A stretch of 64,000 nucleotides of DNA from Mytilus trossulus (lineage: Eukaryota): assembly GCF_036588685.1 (NCBI RefSeq), contig NC_086385.1, positions 12,214,001 to 12,278,000 of the forward strand, in the 5' to 3' direction. Positions 11,845 through 50,559 of the stretch are shown piece by piece. The notes below the pieces were generated by a model, which worked only from the letters and a program-made list of their open reading frames with translations, ran no database searches and was not told where the DNA came from. A program made the translations under genes and the position numbers. Every line of letters starts with the position of its first letter. Within the stretch, counting starts at the first letter, position 1.

Positions 11845-12449
11845 GACACGTCAATTTAAATGAAGTCTGATTGATCTCCAGCTATTCCCCGTTTTGAAAC
11901 AAACTTAAATATGATCTTTATTAAATTCGATCCAAAAATAATCACTTTATAGGAAAAGATATTTAAAAAGTCGTTGTAAATTCCATTAAAACTCATCCAA
12001 ATCAGATTTCTGTTATTCGGATATTTTTAGATACATTTCTTTTCTGACTGTGAACGCTGATTTAAGATTTACGTTGTACCATAAATATGATGAAATATTT
12101 TATGGTCAAGCTTAAATAAAAACTTAAGGAAAGAAAAACCTTTCTTTTTTCTCATTTTGAAACTACGATGTTTGTACAAAGTTCAACTTTGTCGTACTTT
12201 TAAGGCAGATGGCGGATTCGGGATCGGGGGTGAATGGGTGGTTCATCCTTGGATTGGACCAAATATCGTGTTTAGCATAAAAATCGTCAATATTGTTTTT
12301 ATGCATGCTACACTGGGTATTATTATTATTATTATTTTTATATATAGAATAACGCATCTTTCAAAATCCAGGAATCGCCCCCTAAAGGTAAAAATAGATT
12401 TGAACTGTGCAGTATATATGAGGTAGTTAATGCACACCTTTGCTGTGCC

Positions 12450-22223: not shown

Positions 22224-22490
22224 TTACGTTTTGTCAACGTCAGCAAATATAGCTTGAAATGTCTGCCCTTGGTCCTCAACATTGCGCATGCTCACATTCT
22301 TAAATCCTACTTTTTCTAATGTTTTCATATACTCTTCGTGATCTGAAGTCTGGCCGTATTTTAAAATATTTTTCTGAGTAATCGCTTTGATAGAATCAAC
22401 TCGTATAGTTGTCACCATCCGCGCACGTGGTTGCATAACTCGGTAAAGTTCACGACACCCAGCCTGTAGATCAGGCCAAAAATAGTAACA
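22224..22490 (-). pseudogene. 3' half of the last coding exon of a class I SAM-dependent methyltransferase (YdaC-like), separated by the Helentron insertion
   Basis: CYYFWPDLQAGCRELYRVMQPRARMV...VDKT-stop continues the frame of 48488-48322 exactly. Confidence 0.9.
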
Positions 22491-23883
22491 ATTAAAGTTC
22501 AATTCTTCTTGAATAATTGATAGGTCTTTCCTTCCATTTTCTTTTAATTATACTGTCATAAATAAAAATATCATATATATTGATTGATTAATTTATTGAT
22601 TAGTTGGTTGATTGGTTTATTAATTAAACACTTGATAAATGGTCTCTTGAAACAAGCGGAAAAAAGAGACCTTGGATTCCGTATTTAACACATGAAACGG
22701 AAACATGCATTAATTAATGAAATAGATTGATTGATTGGTTGGTTAAACACATTGGTTGGTTAAACACGTTGCTTAAACACGTTGGTTAAACATGTTGGTT
22801 AAACACGTTGATTGGTTAAACACGTTGGAAAGGGTCAATTAAATCAGAAAAAAAGAGACCTTAGATCCCGTATTAAACACATGAAACGGAAACATGCATT
22901 GATTGATTAGTTGGTTGGTTAAACACGTTGGTTGGTTAGTTAAACACGTTGGTTAAACATGTTGGTTTAACACATTGGTTAAACACGTTCGTTAAACACG
23001 TTGGTTGGATAGGCTCAATTAAAACAAGCAACAAAAAAACCTTGGATCCCATATGAAACACATGAAACGGAAACATGCATTGATTGATTGGTTGGTTAAA
23101 CACGTTGGTTGGTTAGTTAAACACGTTGGTTAAACACGTTGGTTGGATAGGCTCAATTAAAACAAGCGAGAAAAAAAACTTGGATCCCGTATGAAACACA
23201 TGAAACGGAAACATGCATTGATTGATTGGTTGGTTGGTTAAACACGTTGGTTGGTTAGTTAAACACGTTGGTTAAACACGTTGGTTGGATAGGCTCAATT
23301 AAAACAAGCGAAAAAAAAAACCTTGGATCCCGTATGAAACACATGAAACGGAAACATGCATTGATTGATTGGTTAGTTAAACACGTTGGTTGGTTAGTTA
23401 AACACGTTGGTTAAACATGTTGGTTTAACACGTTGGTTTAACACGTTGGTTAAACACGTTGGTTAAACACGTTGGTTAAACACGTTGGTTGGATAGGCTC
23501 AATTAAAACAAGCGAAAAAAAAACCTTGGATCCCGTATGAAACACATGAAACGGAAACATGCATTGATTGATTGGTTAGTTAAACACGTTGGTTAAACAT
23601 GTTGGTTAAACACGTTAATGAAACACGTTGGTTAAACACGTTGGTTAAACACGTTGGTTGGATAGGCTGAATCAAAACAAGCGAAAAAAAACAACATTGG
23701 ATCCCGTATGAAACACATGAAACGGAAACATGCATTGATTGATTGGTTAAACATGTTGGTTAAACATGTTGGTTAAACACGTTGGTTAAACACGTTGGTT
23801 AAACACGTTGGAAAGTGTCAATTAAAACAAGCGAAAAAAAGAGACCTTGGATCCCGTATTATACACACGAAAGGGAAACTTGC

Positions 23884-23939
<56 letters not shown>

Positions 23940-24727
23940 GGTTGGAATTCAAACACACATACAACTGTTTAAATAGTGCCAAAAAACACACAATTTGATG
24001 ACCTTGACCTTTGACCTTGTGACCTTCGTCAAGGTCATTGCTCCACAAGGTCATTGCAAAAGACCGTATGGGTCAAGGACCTTTTGTTAAAGAGTTTTGC
24101 CTAAAAATGGCTTTTTAAAAACCATCAATGGGAGTTATGTCCCTTACATGATGGTAAAATCAGTATAGTCATAATGTAAAAAAGTTGCCCCTTGTAGTAC
24201 CAATCATTTTTCACTGCTTAATTTTTCTGTATCTATAACCGTTCAATAGTTATAGGGAAATGAAAAACTTTTGAAAATCTAAAATATGACCTTGACCTTT
24301 GACCTTGACCTATATTTTCTAGTTTTGGTCCAATGAACTCAAATCTGAAGACCCGCAGTCTTTATGACTTACGGTTCATGAGATTTATATGCATATCGAA
24401 AATTTAAATATTCAAGGGGAAATAACTCCTATAATAGGTCACTTGATCGCTTCGATTTTAATTATTTGAACTTGTATCATTTGGCAAGGAACATTTTAAA
24501 AAAAAACATTTGCCGCTAAGTCTTATAGTTCATGAGTTATAGCGATAACAGTGTTTTTTGTAATTGGGGAGATAACTCCTATAAAGTAAATAGTACACTT
24601 CGGTGCCCTTAATACAAGATAGCTTTTATTTACCCGATACTTGGTTCTAAAGATTATTTTGATATCTTGCGTACTTTTCTTGGCGATTGACTTTGAAAAC
24701 GGCGGAAGAAAAAGAATAATAATAATA
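22491..24727 (-). mobile_element. Outer non-autonomous Helentron (HINE), main part; its terminal 59 bp lie at 48263-48321
   Basis: Left end ATTAAAGTTCAATTCTTCTTGAATAATTGATAGGTCTTTCC (hairpin plus subTIR), central tandem repeats, 23995-24727 homologous to 47478-48211, breaks off in (AAT)n. Confidence 0.85.
22580..23945. repeat. Higher-order minisatellite inside the outer HINE
   Basis: 13-bp unit TTAAACACGTTGG in variable numbers within ~130-240-bp higher-order units marked by GGATCCCGTATGAAACACATGAAACGGAAACATGCATTGATTG; (GATT)n at 23887-23935. Confidence 0.9.
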
Positions 24728-25469
24728 ATTAAAGTTCAATTCTTCTTGAATAATTGATAGGTCTTTCCTTCCATTTTCTTTTAATTATACTGTCATAAAT
24801 AAACCGTATTCAAACCGAATGTCATTTTGAAAAAGAGGTGGTCCAGCAAATCATTTAAAATTAAATCAGTTTGAATGATACAATCAGTCGAAAAAGGCAC
24901 CAATTCCCGAAATGCAGATGTGTCACAGTTTGACGTCGCGAAAATAACAGTTTAGTTTAAATAATATGTTATTCAGTTTACGTTAGCAACATCATTACCT
25001 CTCCTGTACCTGTATCGTATGCCCTTTATTGACTAATTTTCTTTGTTTTCTTTCTGTCACCTAGTGTCAAATCTGTTTGTCTATATAAATGAAATGTCAT
25101 GCATCTATATATAGTCTATGGCCTCTACGTTGAGCTCTGTCACAGGTCTAGTCATAAAGTTAATTGTAAAACAAAAATACATTGGACATATAGGCTAATA
25201 GATCTCTGATAATTTAATGTACACTCAATATCAAAGATGTCTAGATAGAGGGCTCACGCAAACAAAAACAAACAAAAAATAACTAGAGGACGAGTTGGTT
25301 TTTCTAACATTTGGGCGACTTGTCCTAATATTAGGACGACTTGTCCTAATATATGATGTATGATTAAAGCGCCTAGCTGACTGTGATGTTTATAGCGTTA
25401 CACACGAGGAAGAAGAAATAATATTTAAAAAAGGTAACTTGGTAAGATTCACGAGACCTGAGAATGATT

Positions 25470-26715
25470 ATCTACAGTACACTTTCATCTCTATATAATT
25501 AATCTTCGCGCTATCAATCATATGTGACGAAGCTTGAACAAGTGACCTAATAATTTCCATTTGTTCATCCTGGACCTAGTCCAAACAATCATGACGTCTG
25601 GCAAGGCTATTTTTTTTAATTTTTTCTGGGACGAAAGAAAGCCTTGACAGACATCATACTTATTTGGACTACCTCCTATCACTTCGAGCACTCGTGATTG
25701 AAATGTCATCCCTGAAAAACACAAGAAGGTCCCAAAAATATTACGGACAATACAATGCCAATGGTAAATAATAACGTACGGACTCACCAGTCACCGTACG
25801 GGTATCCCTAAATATTGCACGCATTTTTGTCACAGGATAGAAGTTCCTTCATTATATAAGTTCTAAAAGGAAAAAGTATTCTGGAATATTATTTCCATTA
25901 GTATGAATATCACAGTTTATTATATACTTAGTTGTAAATACAGATAAATTGTATGTAATACAATCAATGGCAAGCCTGCTGTATCAGCCACCCGTGATGT
26001 CAGTCTGAGACATTGAGTTGTAGCCCGAAGCCAGTGTCTAGTTTAAATAAGCTGGGACAAGTTAACGTACACTGCCAATAGTCTGACTGGTCTAGTGCAT
26101 ATCTGTGTGCACTTTTTTAATTGTTACTTACCGTAAGTTAACGCAGAATGTCACTCAACGCCATCAATATTAATAAACTGATACTCTCTTCCTTGCAAAA
26201 ATTTCGTAAACCAGGTTTGACCTCCCTAATAAGTGATTATTAAAAAAAAAAAAAAAAGCGTGAAAACAGTCAGTACCACGTGTATTGAAAATGTCAAATT
26301 TTGGTAATTATTGATTGATTTATGTTTCATAGACTGAATAAAATATAATTATAACAGAAAATAAAAAAACATTGAACATTTTTGCGTCAGAAGATATTAA
26401 TTCGTAACTGCCCGCTTGTCTTCGTGTTTATTTTAGACGATTGATTATTAGGACAACTTCAGTGACTGGTTACCGTTAATTTTATGAGGAAGTGGAACCA
26501 GTTTTGTTTTCATTTCAAAAGTGTACACATAATTTTGGTCACAAACATCGTTTAATTAATATACATGGCTTTACTGTCAGTAAGTGCGAGACCATGAAAG
26601 GCACCAAAAAGGCTGTCTCACAAGTCTGACAAAGTTACGGAGGCTTAAAAAAATACGAGGATCTTGAATGTTGTTATCTCTAATCAACATGGTTGTAAAA
26701 TCAGAGCGTTGCATC
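25470..26715 (-). pseudogene. Decayed intron-containing cargo gene in the Helentron (possible OB-fold/RPA-like)
   Basis: Exon 26225-26132 (TAG acceptor, GTAAGT donor) splices in frame to the TTTTTCAG acceptor at 25711: GGQTWFTKFLQGREYQFINIDGVE*HSALTY-G-MTFQSRVLEVIGGSPNKYDV; upstream broken frames include KTSGQLRINIF. Confidence 0.4.
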
Positions 26716-27210
26716 TAATTATGATCAATTATCAGTCCAGTGATTTTGAAACACCTGTAGAGTTTTGTCAATTGTCACTGTATACTAGAAGATAATACAA
26801 ATTTCACACATAGCGGGTATGATGAATGCATAGCTGCCAAAATTCTATGCGTAGCGGTACCGCAATGCATGAATAGCCTAGGGAAAACACTGGGTTAAGT
26901 TTTCCTAGACAAGTTCATATATCAGATACTCTAAGCAATAGTTCACTAAATCTGATGTATGGAATGATTGTGAGGTTTACATGTTTAACTGGCAGGTGCC
27001 ATTTGACCTTGACCTCATTTTTATGGTGCAGTACTAAGTCAATGTGAAGTTTTTGAGTTTTGGTCTTTTTTTCTTAAACTATATATGCAATAGGTCAACT
27101 ATATTTGGTTTATGGAAATATTTTATCACCATGACGTATACATGGTATACCTATGTCAGTCTTGCAGGTTTTATTTGACCTCAACCTCAATTTAACAGTT
27201 CATTGCTCAG

Positions 27211-27265
27211 TTTTTATACGACCGCAAATTTTGAAAAATTTTCGTCGTATATTGCTATCACGTTG

Positions 27266-27306
<41 letters not shown>

Positions 27307-29008
27307 CGAATACTTTTAGTTTTCGCACTCTAACTTTAGTAAAAGTGAATAGAAATCTATGAAATTTTAACACAAGGTTTATGACCATAAAAGGAAGGCT
27401 GGTATTGATTTTGGGAGTTTTGGTCCCAACATTTTAGGAATTAGGGGCCAAAAAGGGCCCAAATAAGCATTTTCTTGGTTTTCGCACTATAACTTTAGTT
27501 TAAGTTAATAGAAATCTATGAAAATTTGACACAAGGTTTATAACCACAAAATAAAGGTTGGGATTGATTTTGGGAGTTTCGGTCCCAACAGTTTAGGAAT
27601 TAGGGGCCAAAAAGGGACCCAAATAAGCATTTTTCTTGGTTTTCGCACCATAGCGTTAGTATAAGTAAATAGAAATCTATGAAATTTAAACACAAGGTTT
27701 ATGACAATAAAAGGAAGGTTGGTATTGATTTTTGAAGTTTTGGTCCCAACAGTTAAGGAAAAAGGGGCCCCAAAGGGTCCAAAATTAAACTTTGTTTGAT
27801 TTCATCAAAATTGAATAATTGGGGTTCTTTAATATGCCGAATCTAACTGTGTATGTAGATTCTTAATTTTTGGTCCCGTTTTCAAATTGGTCTACATTAA
27901 GGTCCAAAGGGTCCAAAATTAAACTTAGTTTGATTTTAACAAAAATTGAAACCTTGGGGTTCTTTGATATGCTGAATCTAAAAATGTACTTAGATTTTTG
28001 ATTATTGGCCCAGTTTTCAAGTTGGCCCAAATCGGGGTCCAAAATTAAACATTGTTTGATTTCATCAAAAATTGAATGATTGGGGTTTTTTGATATGCCA
28101 AATCTAACTGTGTATGTAGATTCTTAATTTTTGGTCCAGTTTTAAAATTGGTCTAAATTAAAGTGCAAAGGGTCCAAAATTAAACTAAGTTTGATTTTAA
28201 CAAAAATTAAATTCTTGGGCCTCTTTGATATGCTGAATCTAAACATGTACTTAGATTTTTGATTATGGGCCCAGTTTTCAAGTTGGTCCAAATCAGGATC
28301 TAAAATTATTATATTAAGTATTGTGCAATAGCAAGTCTTTTCAATTGCACAGTATTGTGCAATGGCAAGAAATATCTAATTTCACAATATTGTGAAATAG
28401 CAAATTTTTTTTTAATTAAGAGTTATCTTTCTTTGTCCAGTATAGTAAGCAAGAAATATCTGCAAGAATTTTTTTTAATTGGAGTTATCTTTCTTTGTCC
28501 AGAATCAACTTAAATCTTTGTTATATACAATATACAATGTATATTCACTTTTTACTACCAACTGATAAATTTAAATAATCTTTACCATTCAGTGATAACA
28601 AGCAGTTTTTTTACATCATGTATTTAAATGAGTAGTAATTGTTGCAAACTCCATTAGAATATTTTAATTGAAATTAGTTTTGGAATAAGGGAAAGGGGGA
28701 TGTGAATAAAAAATTGGGTTAAATTTTTCTCTTTTGAAATTTCATAAATAAAAAGAAAATTTCTTCAAACATTTTTTTGAGAGGATTAATATTCAACAGC
28801 ATAGTGAATTGCTCTAAGAGGAAACAAAAATTTTAAGTTCATTTGAATACATTCATTCTGTGTCAGAAACCTATGCTGTGTCAACTATTTAATCACAATC
28901 CAAATTTAGAGCGGAATCCAGCTTGAATGTTGTGTCCATACTTGCCCCAACCGTTCAGGGTTCAACCTCTGCGGTCGTATAAAGCTACGCCCTGCGGAGC
29001 ATCTGGTT
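27211..29008 (+). mobile_element. HINE of a second family nested in the Helentron (copy 1)
   Basis: 5' subTIR TTTATACGACCGCA, partial IR, (CGT)n microsatellite, central tandem repeats, 3' subTIR TGCGGTCGTATAAA plus stem-loop, TT target. Confidence 0.9.
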
Positions 29009-29164
29009 GTGTTTTGGTCTGGCTTTTTCAAAATATAAGCAATAGGTCAACTACACTATATGTGTTGTATGGAAGGATTGTAAGGTGTATATGTCTGTTT
29101 GGCATGTACATGTATCATCTGACCTTGACCTCATTTTCATGATTCACTGTTCAATGTTAAGTTC

Positions 29165-29313
29165 CAGTGGTGGATCCAGAGGGGGGGTTCCGGGGGTGCG
29201 CACCCCCCTTTATTTTTGCCGATCAATGCATTTGTATCGGGACATATGTTTTGCACCCCCCTTTTGCCCTGGGTTAGCACCCCCCCTTTCGAAAATTCCT
29301 GCATCCGCCCCAG
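29165..29313. mobile_element. GC-rich MITE with 5-bp TSD
   Basis: CAGTGGTGGATCCAG ... CTGCATCCGCCCCAG flanked by AGTTC/AGTTC. Confidence 0.75.
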
Positions 29314-29483
29314 AGTTCTTATGGCAGAGTTTTTTTCTCAGATATTATAAGCAATAGGTCATATGATCAACTACATGTATATTTAATCCAAAGAATGATT
29401 GTCAGTTGTACATGTCTGTCTGGCATGGTTCATATGATTTTGACCTCATTTTCATGGTTTAAAGGTCAATTTTTAGTTTTTAT

Positions 29484-30803
29484 CAGAGCTCCAGATAAGC
29501 TGCGTATTTGCGTGATCACGAAATACAAATATTAGAAAACCCAATGCAATTGTCCATTGCAGGGTTCAACAACCCAATTAATTCAACGGAAAACCCAATT
29601 ATATGCCAAAACCATGAGTTTTCAACCCTTTTATTGACTACCGTTTGCGTTATTTACCCTTATCTGTTTAAAGTCGTCGCGTAAACTATTTTTATAATAT
29701 TTATAATTGGAAATTTCCTGTCGTTCTAAAAATAGATCCCTGCATCAAGTACCTGAAATGGGTCCCTGTTTGAGATTTCCCTTGCTCAATAAGTACACGT
29801 GTTTTTGTAAACATTTCGATCTTCTCGGCGTTTATCTAATGAGCATGTTTCATGAGTCATATTTTTTTCGCACTGCTCGGGATTTATCATAACATACATT
29901 GAATTAAAACGAAAGTGAATGTCCGGTAAAAATATTGAATAGAAGCATGTTTTCAGCTTCTTTTGAAAATCTGAGGGAAAGTTATGATGATAACAAGACT
30001 CAGCTAGTGTTTTTAGGAAGCGTACATCAAATGCACGGGCGTTTGTGCGTACCATAATGAGAACATTGCTAATAAACACGGGGTTTCATCAAAATCGAAA
30101 TCAGTTGAAAAATGTAAAAGGCCAAATCAATTATGAAATGATAAAGCATCAGAAACCAAAAGTTCTAAATAAAATACAACTAAACCCAGATTTATGTCAA
30201 TTGAATAAAACAAAAGCATTCAGGTATAATTAGAGTTTATATACTATTATTATTCATGTGGGTATGCGCAGCCTAGAACGGCAATTTGACTATTCATACC
30301 CGCATGCGGGTACGCGCAGACACTGCCTACTTATATAATGAATACACATACCATGCACACAGGCACTGGTCTCAGAATTTATTATATTAAGGTATAAGAC
30401 GAGTGCCTGTGAATACACATATCCGTTTTTGTGAGAAAATACAAAACTGGCAAAAGGTTTGAAATGGGACACAATTTAAACCTACAATTGCTCCTCAGTG
30501 AATAAACCAAATAAAACAGCTAGCAAATAACCCTAACCATAACCCCAAACCAAATAAAACAGTTAAACAAAGAAAGAAACATATTTAAGATGGGGAAAAA
30601 TGGGTTGATATTGCCTAAATATTCAATATTGTGTCGATGAAAAAACCCAATTCATTAAGGAGCTTGGTGGTGAAAAACCCAATTTGATATAAACCTGAGG
30701 GGTGAATTGGAATTGATAATGCAATTAAAAAACTTTATCACCCAATTATATAAGAAAATGGTGGGTAAAAACCCCAATTTGTGAATTCTTATCTGGAGCT
30801 CTG
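29484..30803. mobile_element. Non-autonomous DNA transposon, 16-bp perfect TIR, 6-bp TSD
   Basis: CAGAGCTCCAGATAAG ... CTTATCTGGAGCTCTG flanked by TTTTAT/TTTTAT. Confidence 0.85.
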
Positions 30804-31834
30804 TTTTATGGATAAGTCTGTGTCTTACAAACTATTATCAATAGGTCAACTATATTTGGTGTATTAAATGGTTAGAAGGTGTACATGCTTAATTATTATG
30901 CCCCCGACATAGCGGAGGGGCTATTAAGTTTACCCTTGTCTCTCGGTATGTACATGTATTACACATTTATATGTACTTCCTACAACCAGTGATCTGGAAA
31001 GATTTGTTCTCTATGGGCCCAGGGCCACCAAATAATAAAATCAATGGGCCATTTTTAGAGTTGATGGCCCATGTTGTCAAAGGAGTGGGCCATTTGTTCA
31101 CTATAAAAAAAAAGTTAAAGAAAGTATATATTTCAGCAAAGAGTTAGTGGTAGTAACCTGTATGATTTTAATTGATATCATGGATTTTGTGCCTTGCGAT
31201 TTTGTAATTTCAATTGCAACATGTTGATTAACAGAAATAATGCAAGCTTACTTAAAGATTATAATAAGAGAAAAATTTTCGTCTGTAGTAGCCAAATTTC
31301 AGAAATTTAAAGTTGTTTATAAAAACTTATATCATGAATGATGGTTAATTAGTAAGTTACATGTATACTGCATGTTGCTATTATTACCATAGGAAAACAC
31401 CTGAGACGTCTCCAAAAAATGTACGTGCTCCTATCATTGGAGGGAACACTTCATAGTTGTGTACACAAACACGGCAACATGACATAAGAAGAAACTATAA
31501 AAATCAGTTAAAAAAGGCTTAACTTAACGGAGTGGTCATGGAGGGGTACTTATACATCCCAAAATCAAAAAGGCACTAAGTACAGATCTGAGAGTATTCA
31601 AGGCCAATACCAACTAATAAAAAAACTCATGTTACTTGGACTATACAATGTAATCATGATTATATCAAATATAAAAGACTTTTTTTTTAAAACTTTTTCA
31701 TTATTATGTTTTTTTCAGTCTTTTATCATCAATTGTGGAAGATTTTTTTTTTTCTATAAATGATAAATGTTGCATATGTATTTAGAAAGATTGTTAAATG
31801 GTGATATAAATTTTAGTGTTTTTTTCTTTTGCAG

Positions 31835-34506: not shown

Positions 34507-35512
34507 GTAAGTATTTTTTTTCAGCATACTTATAAAAAAGCTTAACAATTGATATTGCTCAATATTTCCCATTTCTGGGAGTATTGCATACCCTATAAAA
34601 GTTTGTCCACTTGGGTTATCCTGCCTATATAATACTTTGCCAACCCTTTAGTGCAGAGAAGTGAACATTCTTTTCATTTTATCCAGGCCATTCATGCAAT
34701 TTATTAATAATATTGTTATACTCATCAATCAAAAGAGGGACAGTCAAACTCATGACAATGCCATGGCAAAAAATGAAAAGGACAAACGGACAAACAATAG
34801 TACGCATGACACAACATAGAAAACTAAAGAATAAACAACACAAACTTCACCAAAAAAAAGGGGTGATATTTCACAAAATGATGTGTATTTAAATAACCAG
34901 ACTTGTCAAGAAAACCATTTAATCATATATTAAATAAGTTAAGCATGGTATATAAATGTGCAATTTATATGATAAAAGAAAGATAACTCAAATTTAAAAT
35001 ATTTGATAAATGCAATACAATGTTTATTTTAAGTTAGCATAGCATTCTTTACCCGTCAATGGTTTCAAGCAGTTATATTTTTTTATGAATATGGATACAT
35101 GTATGTTTATGCATTTTTTCTATAGATTTATTTAATGCTTGAAACTTTTTCAATATGCATTTAGATGTATATTATTTTGTGTTCATTATGGAGTTCTTAA
35201 TTTGAATATATATATATATTAAACGTTTCATCAGCTTCTCAAATACAATAAAAACTTTTGTTCAAATGAACAGTTTCACAAAGTGTAAACAAAAATGTTT
35301 TTAAGGTTACATCCTTGAAACAAACAGGTTAATCAATCATTGTACTATTGATTTGATTAAAAATTTTATTTATATTTTTTTTTGTTTGGCATTTCAAGCT
35401 TTAAAAACAAAGTTGGACATGACATAAGTTTGGTACTGATAATAGTAAATCTTTTACAAAACTGCATTTTGTCATAACAATATTTTTATACATTTTTTTT
35501 TCATTTCAGGTC

Positions 35513-38500: not shown

Positions 38501-41500
38501 AAATTAGATATTAAAAAAGCTTCAAAAGATAAGTATATAGCAGACGAAAAACACAGAGAAGGAAAAAAAAATGAAAGCATTGAAAAATATAAAAATAATG
38601 ATGAATTCAAAAATAAACTGAAACATGCAAGCATCCACAAATATGCTACTGACAATGAACATCAAAATAGAATTAAACAGGCAAGCATTCACAAGTATGC
38701 TACTGATGATGAATATCAAACTAAGGTGAAACAGGCAAGCATTCACAAGTATGCTACTGATGATGATTATCAAAATAAGGTGAAACAGGCAAGCATTCAC
38801 AAGTATGCTACTGATGATGAACACAGAAGAAATGTTAAATCTCAGATTTTGTCTAAAAGAATTCTTTCTAAAGAAGAAAGCAAAGACATAACAAAAGTTA
38901 TTAAAAAATTTAAGAAAGATGTATGTGAAGGACCTGAATATATTTGTGCTTGCTGTTTTAGACTTTGTTTTCAAAATCAAGTCATGGAATATAAGAAGGA
39001 TTTGTATCAAAAGGATTCTGTAAAAGATGTAGCAGACACTTGCATTTCTGATAAGTATTTGCATAAATGTTTAGACGAATGCGAAGATGAATGTAAGTAT
39101 CAAGGAACTAGTAGACAATCCCTTTGGATTTGTTACACATGTCACAGAAAGATCCAGAAAGGAAAAGTGCCTGCTGAATCTTTTTTTAACAACTTATTAT
39201 TAGATGATGTTCCTAATGAACTTAGCAAATTAAATCAACTAGAACAACATTTAATTTCTCTTAATATACCTTTCATGAAGATAATTGCTCTACCTAAAGG
39301 TGGCCAAAAGGCAGTTCATGGACCATGTGTTTGTGTACCGTCAGATATTTTTAAGGTAACTACTACTTTGCCTAGATCTGAAGATGACAATTGTTTAGTT
39401 AAAGTGAAGCTCAAAAGGAAATTACAGTATAAGGGTTATGAGGAATATCAATTTGTTGATACTAAACATTTAGAAGAAGCATTGCTATTTTTAAAAGAAA
39501 AAAATGAGTGGTATTCAAATATAGTAATCAATGAAAAGTGGTTGAACCCTATTCCTTTACAAAATAACGACTGTTGCCCTGAAGTAGAGAGCATGGACAC
39601 TTCAACAACAACAAATGAAACGCTAAATGATAATTTGCAAGATAGGTCAAATACAGAGGAACAAACAAATGAAGCGGATACATACTTAGATGATACTTTA
39701 CAGGGCGTTCAGTTGGACACATGTTTACAGCCTGCTGATATTGCACAGGAAGCTTTAGATGCATTGTTTGATAAGGAATTCAATCTATCACCTGCAGAGG
39801 AAAATAACCCTGTAAGTCTTTTGAGAACAAAGGGTATTGAAGCTCAAACGTTTCCAGTACATTATCCTACAGGTAAAAACACATTGAATGAAGAGAGAGA
39901 AGAAAAGTTATCTTTATTAAGATATTTCAATCTGAGATTAATGAGTGTAGAAAACCGATTTGCAAGAGATACTTCTTATATATTCTTTTGTCAATATATG
40001 TCTGAACTAGATAGAGTTATGTCAAATGTTCAAATTTCCTTAAGGAAAGGATCGGTGTTTTCAAATGGAAAGAAAGTAACAGGCAAAATGCTATGTGATA
40101 AAGACACATTACATGGGTTATTCCGAAAAGATGAGGCAATAAAGTTTATGAAACCTGTAAGAGGAACACCTCCTTATTGGCAAGCTGAACAAAAGAATAT
40201 TTTTGCTATGATTCGCCAGTTAGGTATTCCCACATTCTTTGCCTCGTTTTCTTCTGCAGACTTCAGATGGAAAGAAATCATAGAAACAATATTGAAGCAA
40301 CAAGGAGATATTCGTAAGTTTGACGAACTTACTTGGGATGAAAAGTGCAAAGTCCTTTGTAGTAATCCTGTTACACCTGCACGAATGTTTGATCGTAGAT
40401 TTAAAAGATTTCTAAAAGATGTTATAATGTCAGATGCTCAACCAATTGGTCATGTGATAGACTACTTTTATAGAGTTGAATTTCAACAGAGAGGTTCTCC
40501 ACACACGCACTGTTTGTTCTGGGTAGAAGATGCCCCAAAATTTAATGAAGATGAAGATGATATTGTAACTGAGTTTGTTGACAAATATATAACATGTAAA
40601 CTACCGCTGGAAACCGAGGACTCAGAGCTAAAAGACATTGTCACAACTGTACAACAACATAGCAAAACACATTCAAAAAGTTGTAGAAAAAAGGGAACTG
40701 TGTGTCGTTTTAATTTCCCAAGACCACCCTCTGAAAAAACATTTATATCACGCCCACCTAAGGATGATGAAGAAGAATGTAGTGTTGCTGATGACACTGA
40801 TGAAGATGTTGACGATGATGTTGTTGAAAAACCAAAATCGGGAATTAGTTCATTAGAAGCTAAAAAGATATTAGAATCTCTATGGGCTGTAATCAAAGAC
40901 TGTGAAAAGGAAAATTTAACTACTACGGAGTTATTCATAAGGGCAGGAGTATCTCAGGAAGATTTTCAAGAATGCTTTAGGTCAGTTACATATAGAAATA
41001 CTGTGGTGTTAAAAAGAAACAAAAATGAAATGTTTATCAATCAGTACAACCCGCATCTCCTGAAAGCATGGGATGCAAATATGGACATACAATACATATT
41101 AGATGCTTATTCTTGTGTTGTTTATATAATAAGTTACATCAGTAAATCAGAACGTGAACTTGGATTGTTGCTACAACAAACAAAAAATGAGGCCGCTGAT
41201 GGAAATTTGAATGCACAACATACAATGAAACAAGTAGGTACTGCATACTTTCACTTTCGAGAGCTGAGTGCCCAAGAAGCTGTTTTTAGAGTGATCGGCT
41301 TAAGTTTGAAAGAATGTTCAAGAAAAGTTGAATTCATTCCAGTTGGAGAAAATCCATGTAAAATGAGTATTCCTCTAAAAGAACTTTTAATCAAATCTAA
41401 AAGCGCAAATACAAAAAAACCTTCAAAGGAAATCGATGATGATGATGACATTGATGACGGTGATGATATCGAACTTTGGATGAAAAGCATTACTGATAGA

Positions 41501-44266
41501 TATAAAAGTCGACCAGAACTTGAATTATTTAATCAGATGTGTTTAGCTTCATTTTGCTCCGAGTTTTCAGTTTTAGCAGAAACACAGATTCCAAATAAAA
41601 TAAATGAAGATACCACATTCAAACTTAAAAATGATATGGGATACATCAGAAAGCGGACAAGAACCCAGCCTGCTATTATCAAATATGCACGATTTTCCAT
41701 TGAAACATCGCCTGAACAGTACTACCAAAGTATTTTACAGTTATATTTACCTTACAGATTAGAGGAACAGTTGAAACCGCCACAATTTTTGACATATGAA
41801 TTGTTTTACAAATCAGGAATGGTCAGGTATAATCAGAAAGAGGTTCTTGTTAAAGTCGAACAAATAGTTAATACTAACATGTCCAACTTTGTGAAAAGTG
41901 GCAAAGAGCTAGAAGCTGCAGAACAAAAATTGGAAGAAAATGATTACCAAGAAGATGCGTGGGCAGACCTATGTCCAGAAACAGAGAGTGAAAGAAGTGA
42001 ATGCACTGAAGCAGCCAAATCTTCAACTGTCATAGAAGTCGACAGTCCTGAATTTGGAATACCAGATTTAAATAAAAGTAACAAGCCAGAAATAGTTAGT
42101 GGAAATGGGATTAAAACTTGTTTACTAAGGTCGGAAGTTATACCCTTGTTGAGAGGTTTAAACATGAAACAAAGGCGTATTTTCTATAAGGTAAGAGAAT
42201 GGTGCAACCTAAAAGCCAATGGTAAAAATCCCCCTCCCTTTCACGTCTTTGTAACAGGCGGAGCTGGAACAGGAAAAAGCCATCTGATTAAATGCTTACA
42301 TTATGAAACCACAAGAATTCTTGCTCGTTGCTCTCCTAGTCCAGACGATTTGACAGTTTTATTGACTGCACCAACTGGCACTGCAGCCTTCAATATAAAT
42401 GGATTGACGATTCACCATGCTCTTTCTATTTTCAAAACTCTTACTGTTGACAAAGCGATGCTTGGTGAAGATAAGCTGAACACTTTAAGGTCAAAATTAG
42501 AAAATTTACAAATTTTAATCATAGACGAAGTCTCAATGGTCAACAAGAGGTTGTTATTCTTCATTCATGAACGGTTGCGTCAGATCAAGAAAAGACCTGA
42601 AAAAGATCCTTTTGGTGGGGTTTCAGTGATAGCTGTTGGAGATTTTTTTCAGTTACCACCAGTAAAATGCCGAAAAACTGATAAACTTTATGTAGATGAT
42701 CCATCGAATCCTTTGAACTATCTGTGGAACGATTTCTTCACTATTGTAGAATTAGATGAAGTCATGAGACAACGTGAAGATGGTTTGTTTGCTCAGTTAT
42801 TGAATAGACTTAGGATAAAAGACAAATATTCTCCTTTAGAATCCTCAGATTTAAAAATGTTAAAGCAGTGTATAGGTAGTGGGACAGATGAAGCTTTACA
42901 CATTTATGCTACTAATAATGAGATTAATATTCACAATACTGAAATGGTTATTAAACTGTCCAGTGAACCTAAGTTAATTGAAGCACAAGATTTTGAAAAA
43001 AATAAAGCTACAGGAAAACTAAGAAAGAAAACAGCAAATTTTTCACAAACTGATATTTGTCTCCCAACTTCAATTCTATTAGCTGAAGGAGCCCGCGTAA
43101 TGCTGAAAAAGAATGAAGCCGTCAATGATGGCTTGGTAAATGGGGTAATGGGCACTATTGTCAGCATTGCAGAATTTTTAGAAGGGTCTTTGCCGAATGT
43201 TATTTTTATCAATTTTGACAATGAGAGAGTAGGAAAAAACGCTAAGATTCAAAAAACAATAAATGGGAAAAGATGCGTTGGATTGGAACCATCTACAGAG
43301 GACATACCATTCAAAAATGGAACGAGAAAACAGTTTCCTTTGCAGTTAGCATGGGCATGTACTGTTCATAAAGTTCAGGGTTTGACAGTTTCACAAGCAG
43401 TTGTGGATTTGAATAAATGCTTCACTTATGGCCAGGCATATGTTGCATTGAGTAGAGTTACTACAAAAGAAGGGCTTCATATATTACCAATTGATGACAA
43501 AACACTTGGTAAAAAAATATACTGTGATCCTGATATCATAACAGGCATAAAAACAATGAAACATTATCTGACTGAAAATGTAGAAGCATCATCTGAAGAA
43601 ACACTTGTAACTATTGTTTATCACAATATCCAAGGACTAAGAGCTCATAAAAATGATTTAGTGGCTAATTCAGACTGTACAGATGCAGATTATGTCTGTC
43701 TGACTGAAACATGGCTTGAATCTTCCTCTGATCATGTTTATCTTCCTAACTATGATTTTTATCACCAACCAAGATCTGCAGCCTACACACCGACTAATTC
43801 TGTGTTTATGAATTTGCAAGCTATGGGCCACGGAGGAGTAGGAGTATATGTAAAAACAGATTCTGAATATGAAAATTGTAACATTACCGTGGAAAATCTA
43901 GAATGTATGACTTTCAGAATTCCCACCATGAATGTCCTTGTGGCAACAATATATAGAACTCAGAAGTATCAAATTGGAATATTTCTTAAAACATTTATTT
44001 CGTTTGTAAGCAAATTGACTGAACTTTCAAACAATATCATTGTTTTAGGTGACTTTAATCAAGACATATTAAAGGGAGAAAGATCCATACTGGACTATAT
44101 GACTTCAAAAGGATTTCAACAGCTAGTGGAAGAGGCCACAACAGAAGGTGGTACATTGATTGATCATGTCTATGTCAAAGGTTGCTCAAAAGTAGAAGTT
44201 AAAGGCATTCCAACTTACTACAGTTATCACGATGCTGTTTCCATAATGCTTAAAGATAGCCGATAA
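35513..44266 (+). CDS. Helentron RepHel polyprotein (2917 aa): tandem repeat - VTD/peptidase C76-like DUB - OTU DUB - Zn finger/DUF6570-like - HUH Rep - PIF1 helicase - APE endonuclease
   Basis: QGSFHQG...AGKQCVSN...FDSHAR (VTD, ~36650-37230); ADGNCLFRAIS...WG...HY (OTU, ~37745-38140); YICACC...WICYTCH; VEFQQRGSPHTHCLFW and YIISYISK (Helentron-type Rep); GGAGTGKS, IIDEVSMV, GDFFQLPPV, MRQ, FPLQLAWACTVHKVQGLT, GQAYVALSRV (PIF1); HNIQGL, LTETWL, GDFN, IDHVY, SYHD (APE). GTCATGG Kozak context. Confidence 0.95.
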   Translation: MARKSKKSKASKAKEQKLRMRERRLAEEALQQSTDIDNFEGESTDNGYPEGENTVNEFAVNKIEINDTVLTVNSVVNKRNHTDNELTVNSVVNHTERNHTDNKLTVNSVVNKRNHTDNELTVNSVVNIRNHTDNELTVNSVVNKRNHTVNELTVNSVVNKRNHSDNELTVNSVVNKRNHTVNELTVNSVVNKRNHTDNELTVNSVVNNTERNHTDNELTVNSVVNNTERNHTDNELTVNSVVKRNLTDNELTVNSDCNDTVTDLTGHTVANTTEQYQTVNELTTPSVDCNIHLVKTNLNNSELSKLKRYSDSIHNQLENKQACLGRNNKNDIDNKADKSVDSNLWKGEQKTGMHVNIRFENPVVLYDLSRSQVTLEQNNRVIQGSFHQGNTRFGENAGKQCVSNCLSAIVHSKLKPVFAWNKFYLDNILIEGNDIYTSVHGTNNYLCVEDLPEFVDLRNRIIHCRKKRSICAFVHDVDPDFDGVLPLDQALQYALIDSDGCFVTVRATTSLVIKQNNKIYMFDSHARNRFGLVDNYGSSIVFELPDIQAVYQHFCNFVQDDQSVPFDVTGITVAMQDTVDSNVDMTLQDNVQHIEIQDSVPILGYLDTKHSIEENETNEETIDNIKGGLLKKTKSRVSDFSNDIKSDRLMNISHNVSDDIESDRLMDISDDMESVDFSKVGSPCTFIKENEVSDIEMMSDCRSNFAFKPLDLCSKRKLCTIFNISSKEVNKNTCSTESCNIGIPLETKPIIADGNCLFRAISYAVSQRQKFHTKVRQDIIKHSLSISCQLTSLLENQYDSVEEHISGRKMRENNSWGTALEIIAAADLLKTDIYTFYNGVWIKYSSSQIFTNSEINERAIYLQHNGDLQHYEVVLSVLPEMDIPLESNRVAMKRKCEQNDLFVSKKHKKLDQRASSLNDENNSSVKSSQKEIHSGKDVTEQQNVSKCEKQKLKYHTDSQLRYNKLSALKKKYSNDKSYKAQKIRQGKEKYQNDYTYKLDIKKASKDKYIADEKHREGKKNESIEKYKNNDEFKNKLKHASIHKYATDNEHQNRIKQASIHKYATDDEYQTKVKQASIHKYATDDDYQNKVKQASIHKYATDDEHRRNVKSQILSKRILSKEESKDITKVIKKFKKDVCEGPEYICACCFRLCFQNQVMEYKKDLYQKDSVKDVADTCISDKYLHKCLDECEDECKYQGTSRQSLWICYTCHRKIQKGKVPAESFFNNLLLDDVPNELSKLNQLEQHLISLNIPFMKIIALPKGGQKAVHGPCVCVPSDIFKVTTTLPRSEDDNCLVKVKLKRKLQYKGYEEYQFVDTKHLEEALLFLKEKNEWYSNIVINEKWLNPIPLQNNDCCPEVESMDTSTTTNETLNDNLQDRSNTEEQTNEADTYLDDTLQGVQLDTCLQPADIAQEALDALFDKEFNLSPAEENNPVSLLRTKGIEAQTFPVHYPTGKNTLNEEREEKLSLLRYFNLRLMSVENRFARDTSYIFFCQYMSELDRVMSNVQISLRKGSVFSNGKKVTGKMLCDKDTLHGLFRKDEAIKFMKPVRGTPPYWQAEQKNIFAMIRQLGIPTFFASFSSADFRWKEIIETILKQQGDIRKFDELTWDEKCKVLCSNPVTPARMFDRRFKRFLKDVIMSDAQPIGHVIDYFYRVEFQQRGSPHTHCLFWVEDAPKFNEDEDDIVTEFVDKYITCKLPLETEDSELKDIVTTVQQHSKTHSKSCRKKGTVCRFNFPRPPSEKTFISRPPKDDEEECSVADDTDEDVDDDVVEKPKSGISSLEAKKILESLWAVIKDCEKENLTTTELFIRAGVSQEDFQECFRSVTYRNTVVLKRNKNEMFINQYNPHLLKAWDANMDIQYILDAYSCVVYIISYISKSERELGLLLQQTKNEAADGNLNAQHTMKQVGTAYFHFRELSAQEAVFRVIGLSLKECSRKVEFIPVGENPCKMSIPLKELLIKSKSANTKKPSKEIDDDDDIDDGDDIELWMKSITDRYKSRPELELFNQMCLASFCSEFSVLAETQIPNKINEDTTFKLKNDMGYIRKRTRTQPAIIKYARFSIETSPEQYYQSILQLYLPYRLEEQLKPPQFLTYELFYKSGMVRYNQKEVLVKVEQIVNTNMSNFVKSGKELEAAEQKLEENDYQEDAWADLCPETESERSECTEAAKSSTVIEVDSPEFGIPDLNKSNKPEIVSGNGIKTCLLRSEVIPLLRGLNMKQRRIFYKVREWCNLKANGKNPPPFHVFVTGGAGTGKSHLIKCLHYETTRILARCSPSPDDLTVLLTAPTGTAAFNINGLTIHHALSIFKTLTVDKAMLGEDKLNTLRSKLENLQILIIDEVSMVNKRLLFFIHERLRQIKKRPEKDPFGGVSVIAVGDFFQLPPVKCRKTDKLYVDDPSNPLNYLWNDFFTIVELDEVMRQREDGLFAQLLNRLRIKDKYSPLESSDLKMLKQCIGSGTDEALHIYATNNEINIHNTEMVIKLSSEPKLIEAQDFEKNKATGKLRKKTANFSQTDICLPTSILLAEGARVMLKKNEAVNDGLVNGVMGTIVSIAEFLEGSLPNVIFINFDNERVGKNAKIQKTINGKRCVGLEPSTEDIPFKNGTRKQFPLQLAWACTVHKVQGLTVSQAVVDLNKCFTYGQAYVALSRVTTKEGLHILPIDDKTLGKKIYCDPDIITGIKTMKHYLTENVEASSEETLVTIVYHNIQGLRAHKNDLVANSDCTDADYVCLTETWLESSSDHVYLPNYDFYHQPRSAAYTPTNSVFMNLQAMGHGGVGVYVKTDSEYENCNITVENLECMTFRIPTMNVLVATIYRTQKYQIGIFLKTFISFVSKLTELSNNIIVLGDFNQDILKGERSILDYMTSKGFQQLVEEATTEGGTLIDHVYVKGCSKVEVKGIPTYYSYHDAVSIMLKDSR
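35719..36280 (+). repeat. Coding tandem repeat, 48/54-bp units (RNHTDNELTVNSVVNK x ~11)
   Basis: Visible in DNA and protein; all length variants are multiples of 3. Confidence 0.95.
38621..38836 (+). repeat. Coding 54-bp tandem repeat (KQASIHKYATDDEYQNKV x4)
   Basis: Four near-identical 18-aa units, with degenerate units upstream (~38400-38620). Confidence 0.9.
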
Positions 44267-44658
44267 GTATTAGATATATATACTGTATATGAATATAATT
44301 GGTACCTGTAAATGACACTGCGAGTTAAGCAAGCAACAACAACGAAACGCACCATACGCAGATGAAGGGCCGGGTGGGATAGGAGGGGTCCCGATCCCGA
44401 AATCCTGGACTCAAAAACGCAAAATCCCAAGGTCCCAAATTTTAATAAATTTAAATCCCGACAACCCGAAATTGGAAAAAAACAACATTTCCCGGATCCT
44501 GAAATTGTCGATCCCGAAATCCTAAGCTTAAAAACACCCTATCCAGAAGTCACGATAAAGGTCCTATCCCCCTCGCACATGTTGCCAGAATGTTATTACA
44601 AAAACTACATAAAAGGGAAACGACCATTTAAGTTTCAGTGCTGGGTGTGTGTGTGTGT

Positions 44659-44694
<36 letters not shown>

Positions 44695-46892: not shown

Positions 46893-47780
46893 ATCTAAAA
46901 TATGACCTTTGACCTTTGACCTTGTGACCTTCGTCAAGGTTATTGCTTCACAATGTCATTGCACAAGACATTAGTGGTGTAGGACCTGTTGTTTAAGAGT
47001 TTTGCCCAATAATGTCTTTTTGTAAACCATCAATGGGGATTATGTCCCTTACACAATGGTAAAACCTATACAGTCATATAGTAACAAAGTTGCCTTTTTA
47101 TTTACCAAGCATTTTTCACTCCTTAAATTTTCTGTATCTATAATCATTCAAGAATTATGGGGAAATCAAAGACATGTGGAAATCTAAAATATGACCTTGA
47201 CCTTTGACCTTGCAACCTATGTCAAGGTCATTACTCCACAATGTCATTGCACAAGACCTTATGGCTGTAGGACCTTTTGTTTAAGAGTTTTGCCTAATAA
47301 CGTATTTTTGTAAACCACCAATGGGGATTATATCCCTTACACAATGGTTAAACCAATACAGTCATATTGTAACAAAGTTGCCCCTTGAAGTACCAAGCAT
47401 TTTTCACTACTTAACTTTTCTGTATCTATAATCATTCAATAATTATAGGGAAATCAAAGACATATGGAAATCTAAAATATGACCTTGACCTTTGACCTTG
47501 TGACCTTCGTCAAGGTCATTGCTCCACAATGTCATTGCAAAAGACCCTATGGGTCAAGGACCTTTAGTTTAAGAGTTTTGCCTAAAAATGACTTTTTAAA
47601 AACCATCAGTGGGAGTTATGTCCCTTACATGATGGTAAAATCAATATAGTCATTATGTAAAAAAGTTGCCCCTTGAAGTACCAAGCATTTTTCACTGCTT
47701 AAATTTCCTGTATCTTTAACCGTTCAGGAATTATAGGGAAATTAAAAACTTTTAAAAATCTAAAATATGACCTTGACCTT
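46893..47780. repeat. ~288-bp tandem repeat (3 units plus a partial) in the Helentron subterminal region
   Basis: Units start with ATCTAAAATATGACCTT(T)GACCTTTGACCTTG at ~46893, 47183, 47470, 47758; the outer HINE has one unit. Confidence 0.9.
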
Positions 47781-48262
47781 TGACCTTGACCTATATTTTC
47801 AAGTTTTGGTCCAATGAACTCAAATCTGAAGACCCGCAGTCTTTACGACTTACGGTTCATGAGATTTATATGCATATCGAAAATTTAAAAATTCAAGGGG
47901 AAATAACTCCTATAATAGGTCACTGGATCGCTTCGGCTAAAGTAATTTGAAGTTGTAACTTTTGGCAAGGAACATTTAAAAAAAAACCATTTGCCGCTAA
48001 GTCTTATAGTTTATGAGATATAGCGATAACAGTGTTTTTTGTAATTGGGGAGATAACTCCTATAAAGTAAATAGTACACTTCGGTGCCCCTTATACAAGA
48101 TAGCTTTTATTAACCCGATACTAGATACCAAAGATCATTTTGATATCTTGCGTACTTTTATCACCGATTAACTTTGAAAAACGGCAGAAGAAAAAGAATA
48201 ATAATAATAATAAACAAACGAAATACAGTAAGGTCTTTCCATTTAAGAAAGGAAAGACCTTA

Positions 48263-48321
48263 ATAATAATAAACAAACGAAATACAGTAAGGTCTTTCCA
48301 TTTAAGAAAGGAAAGACCTTA
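48263..48321 (-). mobile_element. Displaced terminal segment of the outer HINE
   Basis: (AAT)n-AAACAAACGAAATACAG-TAAGGTCTTTCC-N10-GGAAAGACCTTA, exactly the piece missing after 24727. Confidence 0.85.
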
Positions 48322-50415
48322 ATTACAATGGAACACTCTGTGAAACGTGTCATTTTTGAAAGGAAGATCGAGAACATTTCCTTTTCGAATGCAGACTTTC
48401 CCATCATGTATTTTCTTTGCTAGTCGGCTTTTGGCTAGTGAAACCATTTTATCAGAAAAGTCTATACCATATATTTTACCATTGCCATCTGAAGTAAAGG
48501 AAAAACTAAACATTAACACTAAAAAATGAATTTTTATAGCTGACTATGCGGTTAGGCTTGCTCATTGTTGAAGGCCGTACGGTGACCTATCAATCTAATT
48601 AAAATATTGATCTATACTATGTAGTATAACGTAATCAGAGATCAATATTTTAATTAGATTGGGTGACCTATTGTTGTTAATGTCTGTCATTTTGGTCTTT
48701 TGTGGATAGCTGTCTCACTGGCAATCATACCACATCTTCTTTTCATAATGTTAATATATAAAATTGAGATTAAGAACAAGGGCACATTATATATTATGTA
48801 AACAAAACAATAACGATAGTGTATGAAATAACAAAACTGATAACAAAAATTAAAGAGAGGAATCTTAACCCCAAGCCCCGAGAATTTGACAAAATCAGAT
48901 TTTTCCTCCTTTTTTTTGAATGACCCTGGCCACACTCTTTCTCGGTAAATAACTCATTTATTGAAACAGACACATGTTTCTGGAAAACAAAAGTGTGTCC
49001 ATAGTACATGCATGCTCCACGCCATCTTCCATGTTCATTCACTGCAGACGTGCTGGTTTTGATCATTCCAAGCCATCTGTTAGAATAGTCATCAAAGGTA
49101 CCAGGATTATAATTTAGTACGCCAAACCCGCATTTCGACTACATATGACTCATCAGTGACGCTCAAATTAAAAAAAAATATAAAGCAAAACAAGTACAAA
49201 GTTGAAGTCACGGCATTGATGACCCAAAATTCCGAACCTTGTTCCAAATACAGCTAAGCAATTTCAATTGATTTAGACTTTTTGTGCTGTTTGTTTGTAG
49301 ATTTGTGTTTTGATTGTACTTTTCACTTCACGAATTTGTCACATTGTGGTAGATAACGTCTCGTGTCAATATATTTGTCATATGTCACATATGATGTTTG
49401 TTTTTGTACTGCATTTTCTAAGAAAGACTTTTGTAACATAAAGCGTAATAAGTCAGTCACATTTCTACAAGCTTACCCGTTACATATTTACAAGCAGCTT
49501 CTAGTCCAACTCCTGGTCCGAACCCAACCTCTAAAACATCGTAGTGTGGTTCAATCTGACACAGTTTTACAGCACTTTCTTCTAAAACCACATTTCGTCT
49601 CAAAAAGATATTCTGAATTTGAAAAAAGGTTACAAACAAAGTTGTTGATCATAGGTGCAATTGGTGCCAAGATGTTTAAAAGTTTCAAAATGTTTTGTTC
49701 ATAACCCGATGAAAGATAATGACGTGTGTGTTCTTGAATTGGTCGGGTCGTTGACTCTTTGACATATTCCCCATTTCAATTCTCCATTTTATGAATACTG
49801 AAGCAGCCGACCTGTAAATGTCCATCCTTTCATTAAATACAATCACTTACATATCAAAATGAGTAGTAACCTGGAATAGACATGCAAGTTTACTATGATT
49901 CTGTTATGAATATTAAAATGTGAAGATATGTGTGGATTAATATACATTAATATTTTAACTTAACATCAAGCATGTCATGAATATTTAACCGATTGTACAT
50001 CATATGGAAGATGAAGCAAAAATACCAAAGCTCTCTTGTTGACTTTTATTTTAAAACGATGTTTGGCAATAGGTTGAATTACAATTTTTAAATTTCTCAA
50101 AATAAGTTTTATGCCAGGCTGAAAATTTCAGGCAAAAACTTAATGCCTAGGCGTTAGTTCATTGTCAGGGATTTGAGCGCGATGCCTAATTTTTCTTATT
50201 ATCTAACATATATTTATGGCTGTAAACTACTTGTAGAATCTTTCAAGGGCTCACATACAACTAAGGAAATTCAATCCTTTTTAGCCCACCCAAATTCGTT
50301 CCGAACGGTAAAAACTATGAAGACTGATATATACCTTCGTAACATACCAACCAAAGAAGCCACTTCCAGGTTTCCGCAGATTCTGTGCTAAATATTCTCT
50401 GAAGATATTAGTCAT
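48322..50415 (-). pseudogene. 5' part of the disrupted class I SAM-dependent methyltransferase gene; coding exons 50415-50335, 49612-49477, 48488-48322
   Basis: Canonical GT-AG junctions with phases 0 and 1: MTNIFREYLAQNLRKPGSGFFGWYVTK|NIFLRRN...DVLEVGFGPGVGL (motif I)...VT|DGNGKIYGIDFSDKMV...GNVLDLPFKNDTFHRVFHCN; a TAA is created at the element junction. Confidence 0.9.
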
Positions 50416-50559
50416 CTTCCTGAATATATAAAAGTTTAAATTTATGAACATTGCTATCAGAATAAGAATAAAGAAATTTGCTGAGGTTTTTGATGGGATT
50501 ACTCTTTCACCGACGTTCAACGTGACCACGTCCGTTTTTATTCTGATCAAGAGTTTGAT

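Follow-up and report, generated by a model that had tools for sequence, protein, structure and literature searches.

Probable knockout of a conserved methyltransferase gene in Mytilus trossulus by two nested insertions of one Helentron family

How did a conserved gene come to carry 25.8 kb of inserted DNA in its last coding exon, and what is left of its function? This question is raised by a stretch of 64,000 nucleotides from Mytilus trossulus (NCBI RefSeq assembly GCF_036588685.1, contig NC_086385.1, positions 12,214,001 to 12,278,000 of the forward strand), which we refer to as the window and within which all coordinates are counted. The gene encodes a YdaC-like class I S-adenosylmethionine (SAM) methyltransferase and is interrupted at 22491-48321. 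We consider it likely that it was knocked out by two insertions of one Helentron family, element A in the last exon and then element B inside A.

The gene lies on the minus strand in four pieces. We compared them with P0001, a 216-aa YdaC-like methyltransferase of Mytilus edulis, and compared the region 47800-50500 with the contigs of four public runs (all Logan contigs), labelled X1 (DNA, organism A), X2 (DNA, organism B), X6 (organism C) and X17 (organism A); X6 and X17 are RNA by the guess of the tool alone.

50335 to 50415, minus strand: methyltransferase coding exon 1, amino acids 1-27, 27/27 identical to P0001; joint 49612/50335 in X6 and X17
49477 to 49612, minus strand: methyltransferase exon 2, in spliced contigs of X6 (2 differing letters) and X17 (3)
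48322 to 48488, minus strand: methyltransferase exon 3a, before the break, to N128; Pfam Methyltransf_25/11; no mismatch to an X17 contig, one to X6
22224 to 22490, minus strand: methyltransferase exon 3b, after the break, amino acids 129-216 and stop; 83/88 identical to P0001

Joined in the order 50415-50335, 49612-49477, 48488-48322 and 22490-22224, these pieces give 651 nt, or 216 amino acids and a stop. Both introns are of the GT-AG type and are seen as joints in two of the four runs, X6 and X17; exon 2 presumably holds the SAM-binding motif I. The restored protein aligns with P0001 without gaps at 199 of 216 identical residues (by exon 27/27, 41/45, 48/56 and 83/88), and P0001 was the only match to exon 3b among 23 candidates. 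An earlier reading of this DNA from its sequence alone had proposed that one gene is split by a 25.8-kb insertion in its last coding exon and that removing 22491-48321 restores a 216-aa open reading frame (ORF); coordinates and frame both hold. It had also placed the break in what proves to be the T|T register (the position can be slid one base to the left or four to the right), and with the insert in place a TAA does, as it stated, follow N128 directly and ends translation. Among solved structures, the closest are small-molecule methyltransferases, and these are distant (best E 1.4e-07). The term YdaC did not occur in the papers returned by a literature search on the methyltransferase, among the matches listed.

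What the break removes can be judged from 99 homologues of 190-280 aa, 15 of 114 having been excluded by length. The window protein retains 44 of the 47 columns that are conserved at 90% or above, and 18 of these 47 lie downstream of the stop. N128 and W133 are invariant in the set, so the insertion disrupts the most conserved motif. One change is non-conservative: Q148 occupies a 94%-conserved site with a basic residue elsewhere. Among 6 donor-like and 7 acceptor-like sites (acceptors restricted to positions below 22800), we found no in-frame splice that spares the N128-W133 motif. Donor 48326 and acceptor 22552 are in frame, yet run into a TAA at 22548-22550, and the remaining in-frame pairs lose the motif; the cryptic pair noted in the sequence-only reading shifts the frame, just as that reading said. 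Because 18 of the 47 conserved columns lie beyond the stop and no splice pair listed retains the motif, the allele is predicted to be null, in line with the knockout claimed earlier, and would yield at most a 128-aa product without the C-terminal 88 residues. We considered the 130-aa protein P0122 as a truncated product of the broken gene and rejected it, as it is a C-terminal fragment of an intact protein. An AATAAA at 48106-48111 (minus strand), reached about 210 nt after the gene strand enters the insert, could terminate a truncated transcript.

As far as its sequence can tell, the insert consists of two elements, one nested in the other, that belong to one Helentron (HLE2) family and have the same ends. 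The outer element A resembles the HINEs, noncoding elements with the termini of autonomous Helentrons, and the inner element B resembles an autonomous Helentron.

48263 to 48321, minus strand: outer element A, 5' module (HINE convention) with 12-bp subterminal inverted repeat (subTIR), inverted repeat hairpin and start of (ATT)n; identical to 48204-48262
24728 to 48262, no single strand: inner element B, 23,535 bp, putative autonomous-type Helentron; shares its terminal 76 nt and 59 nt with A without a difference
22491 to 24727, minus strand: rest of outer element A, with microsatellite remainder, core, one 288-bp monomer, 13-mer and ~140-bp arrays, (TTGA)n, 3' subTIR and weak stem-loop
46893 to 47788, no strand assigned: three 288-bp central repeats of B; the one monomer of A is 94% identical to the terminal-most of them

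The first 76 nt of the insert are repeated identically at 24728, and its last 59 nt form an exact tandem pair. Between these, 23998-24732 and 47479-48214 are 93% identical, and the similarity halts in an AAT run where the 59-nt module would be expected. The 59 nt lacking from A's end at 24727 are present exactly once, past the end of B. Since the homology halts at the AAT run and the missing module occurs past B, nesting is the simplest reading: B sits in the (ATT)n microsatellite of A itself, at a distance of 59 bp from the 5' end of A. In B, the transposase is encoded on the plus strand, opposite to the minus-strand reading of the termini. A, about 2.3 kb in total, has the features by which HINEs are recognised, namely termini as in the autonomous Helentron, a microsatellite, central repeats and no coding capacity (no ORF of its own of at least 100 aa). 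The 13-mer and ~140-bp arrays are private to A, and because the 13-mer arrays are missing from B, A is not a simple deletion derivative of B. Reading the 736-bp direct repeat as a pair of long terminal repeats was rejected, because Pfam matches include no retroelement domain and the ends resemble those of HINEs. The sequence-only reading was thus right that there is an insertion, and left unmentioned that it is a nested Helentron-family pair with a 2,947-codon stop-free frame.

The termini agree with this assignment. HINEs are described as having subTIRs near their ends, a 5' inverted repeat and a microsatellite (PMC4067079, PMC7492417; here and below, papers are cited for the passages drawn on), and Helentrons as ending in asymmetric subterminal inverted repeats of 11-15 bp plus a 5' inverted repeat or palindrome (PMC4067079). 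On the minus strand, both elements run from a subTIR through an inverted repeat and (ATT)n to the partner subTIR and a weak stem-loop. The 12 bp of the subTIR pair match perfectly (22522-22533 and 48308-48319); one copy begins 2 nt from its end, and at the opposite end the second is found at a distance of 31-43 nt. The 5' hairpin has a z of about -6, and none of 200 shuffles folds equally well. One register puts both insertions at T|T without target duplication, the rule stated for HLE2 (PMC4067079, PMC11417382).

The coding part of B and the features of its left 10 kb are as follows.

35513 to 44266, plus strand: Helentron transposase ORF, 2,917 aa, with Herpes_teg_N, OTU, DUF6570, Rep (HUH/Y2), PIF1 helicase and C-terminal endonuclease
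26565 to 26579, plus strand: probable coding mini-exon of the transposase gene, upstream of the main ORF; its five codons specify the residues with which P0002 begins, and a GTAAGT donor comes next
27211 to 29008, plus strand: passenger HINE-like element of another family in B, with (CGT)n and 159-bp and ~130-bp arrays; second copy at 60338-61969
33845 to 34300, plus strand: second passenger HINE-like element in B, with a 169-bp repeat; ends judged by eye

The stop-free frame extends over 35423-44266 (plus strand), with the ATG at 35513. Pfam recognises Helitron_like_N (E 1.4e-30), PIF1 (E 6.2e-27) and, at the C-terminus, Exo_endo_phos (28.2 bits against a cut-off of 24.5); Rep motif 2, the YxxxY motif and the helicase motifs are present. 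At Rep motif 2 the protein carries FYR and GSPHTH; (F/Y)xR before motif 2 and the S in G-S-P-H-x-H are diagnostic of Helentrons (PMC4067079), and DUF6570, Herpes_teg_N and the endonuclease (EN) are markers of HLE2 (PMC4067079, PMC11417382). On the strength of these residues and domains, we assign B to the autonomous-type Helentrons, as an HLE2 element with EN. The nearest record is the M. trossulus protein LOC134726488 (P0002; its 90% cluster has 14 members), 99% identical over aa 1100-2700 and 93% overall. Identity is complete over aa 1401-2000 (600/600) and 2201-2600 (400/400) and falls to 81-88% at aa 601-1200; this change from 81-88% before aa 1200 to near-identity after it suggests exchange between subfamilies. 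B was probably mobile recently, and its unbroken frame is indirect evidence that the element may be active. Two in-frame tandem repeats in the ORF, at 35720-36286 (48 bp, 11.5 copies) and 38598-38821 (54 bp, 4.1 copies), contain indels relative to P0002.

The main ORF is without the first five residues of P0002, and the window encodes these once, in the mini-exon 1.8 kb inside B's left end. Its donor is in frame with an acceptor at 35509/35510, and the pattern arose in none of 2000 mononucleotide shuffles of 24728-35500. The match supports a single transcription unit, in which the transposase gene would probably have an 8.9-kb first intron. This intron would contain at least two HINE-like passengers that come from other families. 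Copies of the first passenger at 27211-29008 and 60338-61969 are 91.8% identical over 1,554 nt, and their flanks diverge at the same ends. No captured protein domain exceeded the Pfam cut-off among 45 of the 49 ORFs of at least 55 aa in B (four in terminal repeats were excluded), nor was RPA found among these; a HemY_N match was below the cut-off, lay in a microsatellite and was rejected. B also contains a 390-bp duplication (90% identical; 31550-31939 and 32642-33016), each copy with, by eye, a short segment bounded by AG...GT, possibly an untranslated exon.

When did these insertions happen? Earlier, the absence of secondary lesions had been taken as a sign of recency. The frame is indeed clean, but the argument is weak for 648 nt, and Q148 is non-conservative. 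In a simulation of neutral decay (400 replicates per point, assuming 0.1 indels per substitution), the 648-nt methyltransferase frame stayed open in 47% of cases at 1% divergence and in 6% at 4%, while the 8.75-kb transposase frame stayed open in 6% at 0.3% and in 1% at 0.5%. A clean methyltransferase frame thus bounds the age weakly, and a clean transposase frame bounds it tightly. By this model, B, or at least its ORF, is young at its present site, and A may be older. Because B is young, its passengers were probably acquired before its last jump.

The simpler reading of the order at this locus is A first and B second. In step one, the 2.3-kb HINE A would have entered the last exon at the T|T of codons N128/C129, moved in trans by a B-type transposase, which would also have moved B; in step two, the 23.5-kb autonomous B would have been pasted into a T|T within A's (ATT)n, 59 bp from A's 5' end. 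Helitron-type copy-and-paste proceeds from a single strand via a circle and produces no duplication (PMC5148889). By analogy, the Rep domain would nick a terminus, the helicase would peel off a single strand, and the copy would integrate without target duplication (PMC5148889). The (ATT)n of each HINE would supply several T|T targets, and for HLE2 elements of Fusarium, self-insertion near the 5' end is described as producing doubled 5' termini (PMC5148889).

Contigs of X2, X6 and X17 match exon 3a to exactly 48321 and then continue with 538, 69 and 495 letters, respectively, that are foreign to the window. This exit fits an empty allele, since the one-base slide predicts departure there. The X17 letters, if exon 3b, would finish near 21995, just beyond an ATTAAA at 22033. 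By contrast, a contig of X1 runs 24 letters from exon 3 into the element (2 differing letters in its 287), of which an empty allele would mismatch 17; this overlap is shorter than the tool's 31-letter bridging rule, and X1 is possibly the source sample. With the labels taken at face value, organism A has both filled and empty forms, which agrees with the earlier suggestion that the insertion is probably polymorphic. The X1 contig is the sole contig at 48406. Its depth of 29.7 comes close to that of two allelic intron-2 contigs added together (14.5 and 17.9), which hints at a junction on both chromosomes, the opposite of the hemizygous state that had earlier been named beside polymorphism. However, the two X1 intron alleles, about 1 kb away, differ by 16 letters and 14 gaps in tables that show part of the contigs, which would be unexpected for a young homozygote. 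The family ends are very high-copy, with a summed contig depth (not taken as copy number) in the thousands versus about 30 in the exon. In X1 and X6, contigs that represent further copies of the family break off at 48264-48266 (three contigs listed, covering the terminal module only). A contig of X17 crosses a doubled 5' module (91 nt, depth 4, 4 gaps) and differs from the window locus, so that such doubling may occur elsewhere. Within intron 2 of the methyltransferase, 48591-48661 is a small foldback insertion of 71 bp with perfect inverted arms of 23 bp, lying in a repeat of high copy number; many run contigs skip it.

Several observations weigh against two successive insertions as set out above. 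The ends of A and B are identical, yet the adjacent core is 93% identical, which under uniform divergence would have a chance probability of about 6e-5; identical ends beside such a core require selection on the termini or template switching. The 3' hairpin predicted between 3' subTIR and end is weak (z -1.2 to -1.6; 11-27 of 200 shuffles equal it), and the outer junction pair has a 5-bp AATTA overlap, so that other registers, including one with target duplication, are formally possible. At least two passengers within B are odd for a young element, unless they were carried in with it. Lastly, that the letters past 48321 in the empty-type contigs correspond to exon 3b is inferred. The same anatomy would also follow if the A::B composite had formed elsewhere and moved here in one step as a 25.8-kb unit, with the outer 5' end nicked and the 3' end of B bypassed. 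Only the order of events would then differ, and the knockout would be as young as B. In its favour, the outer ends are undamaged and agree fully with those of B, elements with doubled 5' ends are reported to transpose in Fusarium (PMC5148889), and the low-depth X17 contig spans a doubled module. Such a move would, however, require bypass of a perfect internal 3' end, and the X17 contig, being unlike the window locus, could stem from a separate self-insertion; we regard arrival in one step as rather unlikely.

Much less probable is a tandem rolling-circle product, in which a truncated and a full unit with a duplicated end arose in a single event without nesting. PMC7492417 mentions Helitrons in tandem whose inner copies are truncated, and the left microsatellites of A and B have five AAT units alike, but exactly one and the same module would have to be lost and gained. 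Moreover, the 7% difference in the core and A's 1.4 kb of arrays missing from B show that the two are not copies of one template. We likewise give little credit to an assembly artefact that joined B or the entire insert through shared repeats: the family ends are high-copy, but the gene halves fit to the base and the X1 contig, with the reservations given above, leads from exon 3 into the element. That the halves belong to two tandem paralogues, or to a duplicate already dead before the insertion, seems very improbable to us. In its favour, Q148 departs from a conserved basic position, 90% clusters can conceal close paralogues, and an orthologue would be expected to be closer to the M. edulis protein than 92% identity. 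Against this, each part of P0001 occurs once in the window (tblastn); P0001 and the partial P0122 are the sole sequences above 90% identity among 116 matches, with the next best at 62%; exon 3a is identical to a spliced contig with the same species label as the best DNA run; and 44 of the 47 conserved columns are retained. The halves also share their best Mytilus matches (P0001, and P0122 for the C-terminal part only) at 90.6% and 94.3%, whereas the sequence-only reading would have been overturned by matches to different paralogues.

Elsewhere in the window, a 400-aa ORF with DUF1647 (3714-4916, plus strand) is followed about 8 kb downstream by a partial duplicate in several pieces (12449-14321, 81-88% identical). 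A C1q-domain ORF at 11287-11844 (plus strand) has two matched stretches; the second of them looks like a partial duplication within the ORF. A 159-aa ORF at 17403-17882 (minus strand) has no Pfam match and resembles what we take to be the C-terminal end of reverse-transcriptase proteins encoded by LINEs. Long palindromic or foldback repeats lie at 1562-1900, 18419-18635 and 20786-20963, including two inverted copies of an array of 21-bp units.

The locus has several practical uses. It offers a naturally occurring null allele of a methyltransferase that is conserved and uncharacterised, and it is a candidate for testing the role of the Helentron family in Mytilus structural variation. With its exact ends and unbroken ORF, B is a candidate element for assaying how a Helentron with an endonuclease transposes. 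Close relatives of the transposase are recorded by RefSeq-type annotation as uncharacterised host proteins, as is P0002 itself. A far-reaching and, in our view, unlikely generalisation would be a currently active family of giant, intron-containing Helentrons in blue mussels that home on the (ATT)n of their own high-copy HINEs (so that insertions of 2 kb grow to 25 kb in one step) and create a real share of the hemizygous DNA of the mussel pan-genome and of its gene-null alleles; some animals would then be homozygous null for a methyltransferase whose conservation extends from molluscs to fish.

Exons broken by transposons, bivalve Helentrons, reversed ORFs and self-insertion have each been described before. 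A prior account of this family or locus was not found among the papers that a literature search listed; the family may already have a name in Repbase. The restored protein is homologous over its full length to animal YdaC-like methyltransferases (P0001; fish zgc:194242), with 44 of 47 conserved columns retained. B and A share with the known Helentrons/HLE2 and HINEs a Rep-Hel-EN and OTU in one ORF, the motif-2 residues, 12-bp subTIRs, the 5' inverted repeat, the microsatellite, central repeats and the T|T target (PMC4067079, PMC11417382). At 23.5 kb, B is long but within the known size range, given as below 12.3 kb for 75% of autonomous Repbase elements with a maximum of 39.9 kb (PMC4067079, PMC11417382). 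It differs from the usual Helentrons/HLE2 in its probable 8.9-kb first intron with passengers, its weak 3' stem-loop and the lack of RPA among the scanned ORFs. Its transposase, antisense to the conventional order of the termini, recalls Helentron-Da-40 of Drosophila ananassae and the 'HLE2-reverse' elements FoHeli4/5 (PMC4067079, PMC5148889, PMC11417382); B differs from these in its bivalve host and the presence of the endonuclease domain, a comparison of features rather than of trees. The self-inserted FoHelis of Fusarium oxysporum likewise carry a doubled 5' terminus of short length (<200 bp), for which self-insertion is the explanation given (PMC5148889). Here, by contrast, the full nested state is kept, with both 3' ends and the autonomous element inside the non-autonomous one, the reverse of the nested example in the passages cited (PMC5148889). 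Finally, Cg_HINE of the Pacific oyster shares the subTIR, inverted repeat, microsatellite, satellite-like central repeats and T-rich target (PMC7492417). According to the passages cited from that study, none of 10 autonomous Helentrons could be related to its HINEs, and insertions lay in non-coding gene regions (PMC7492417). In the mussel window, by comparison, the target is a coding exon, and a bivalve HINE is tied by identical ends to its likely autonomous partner.

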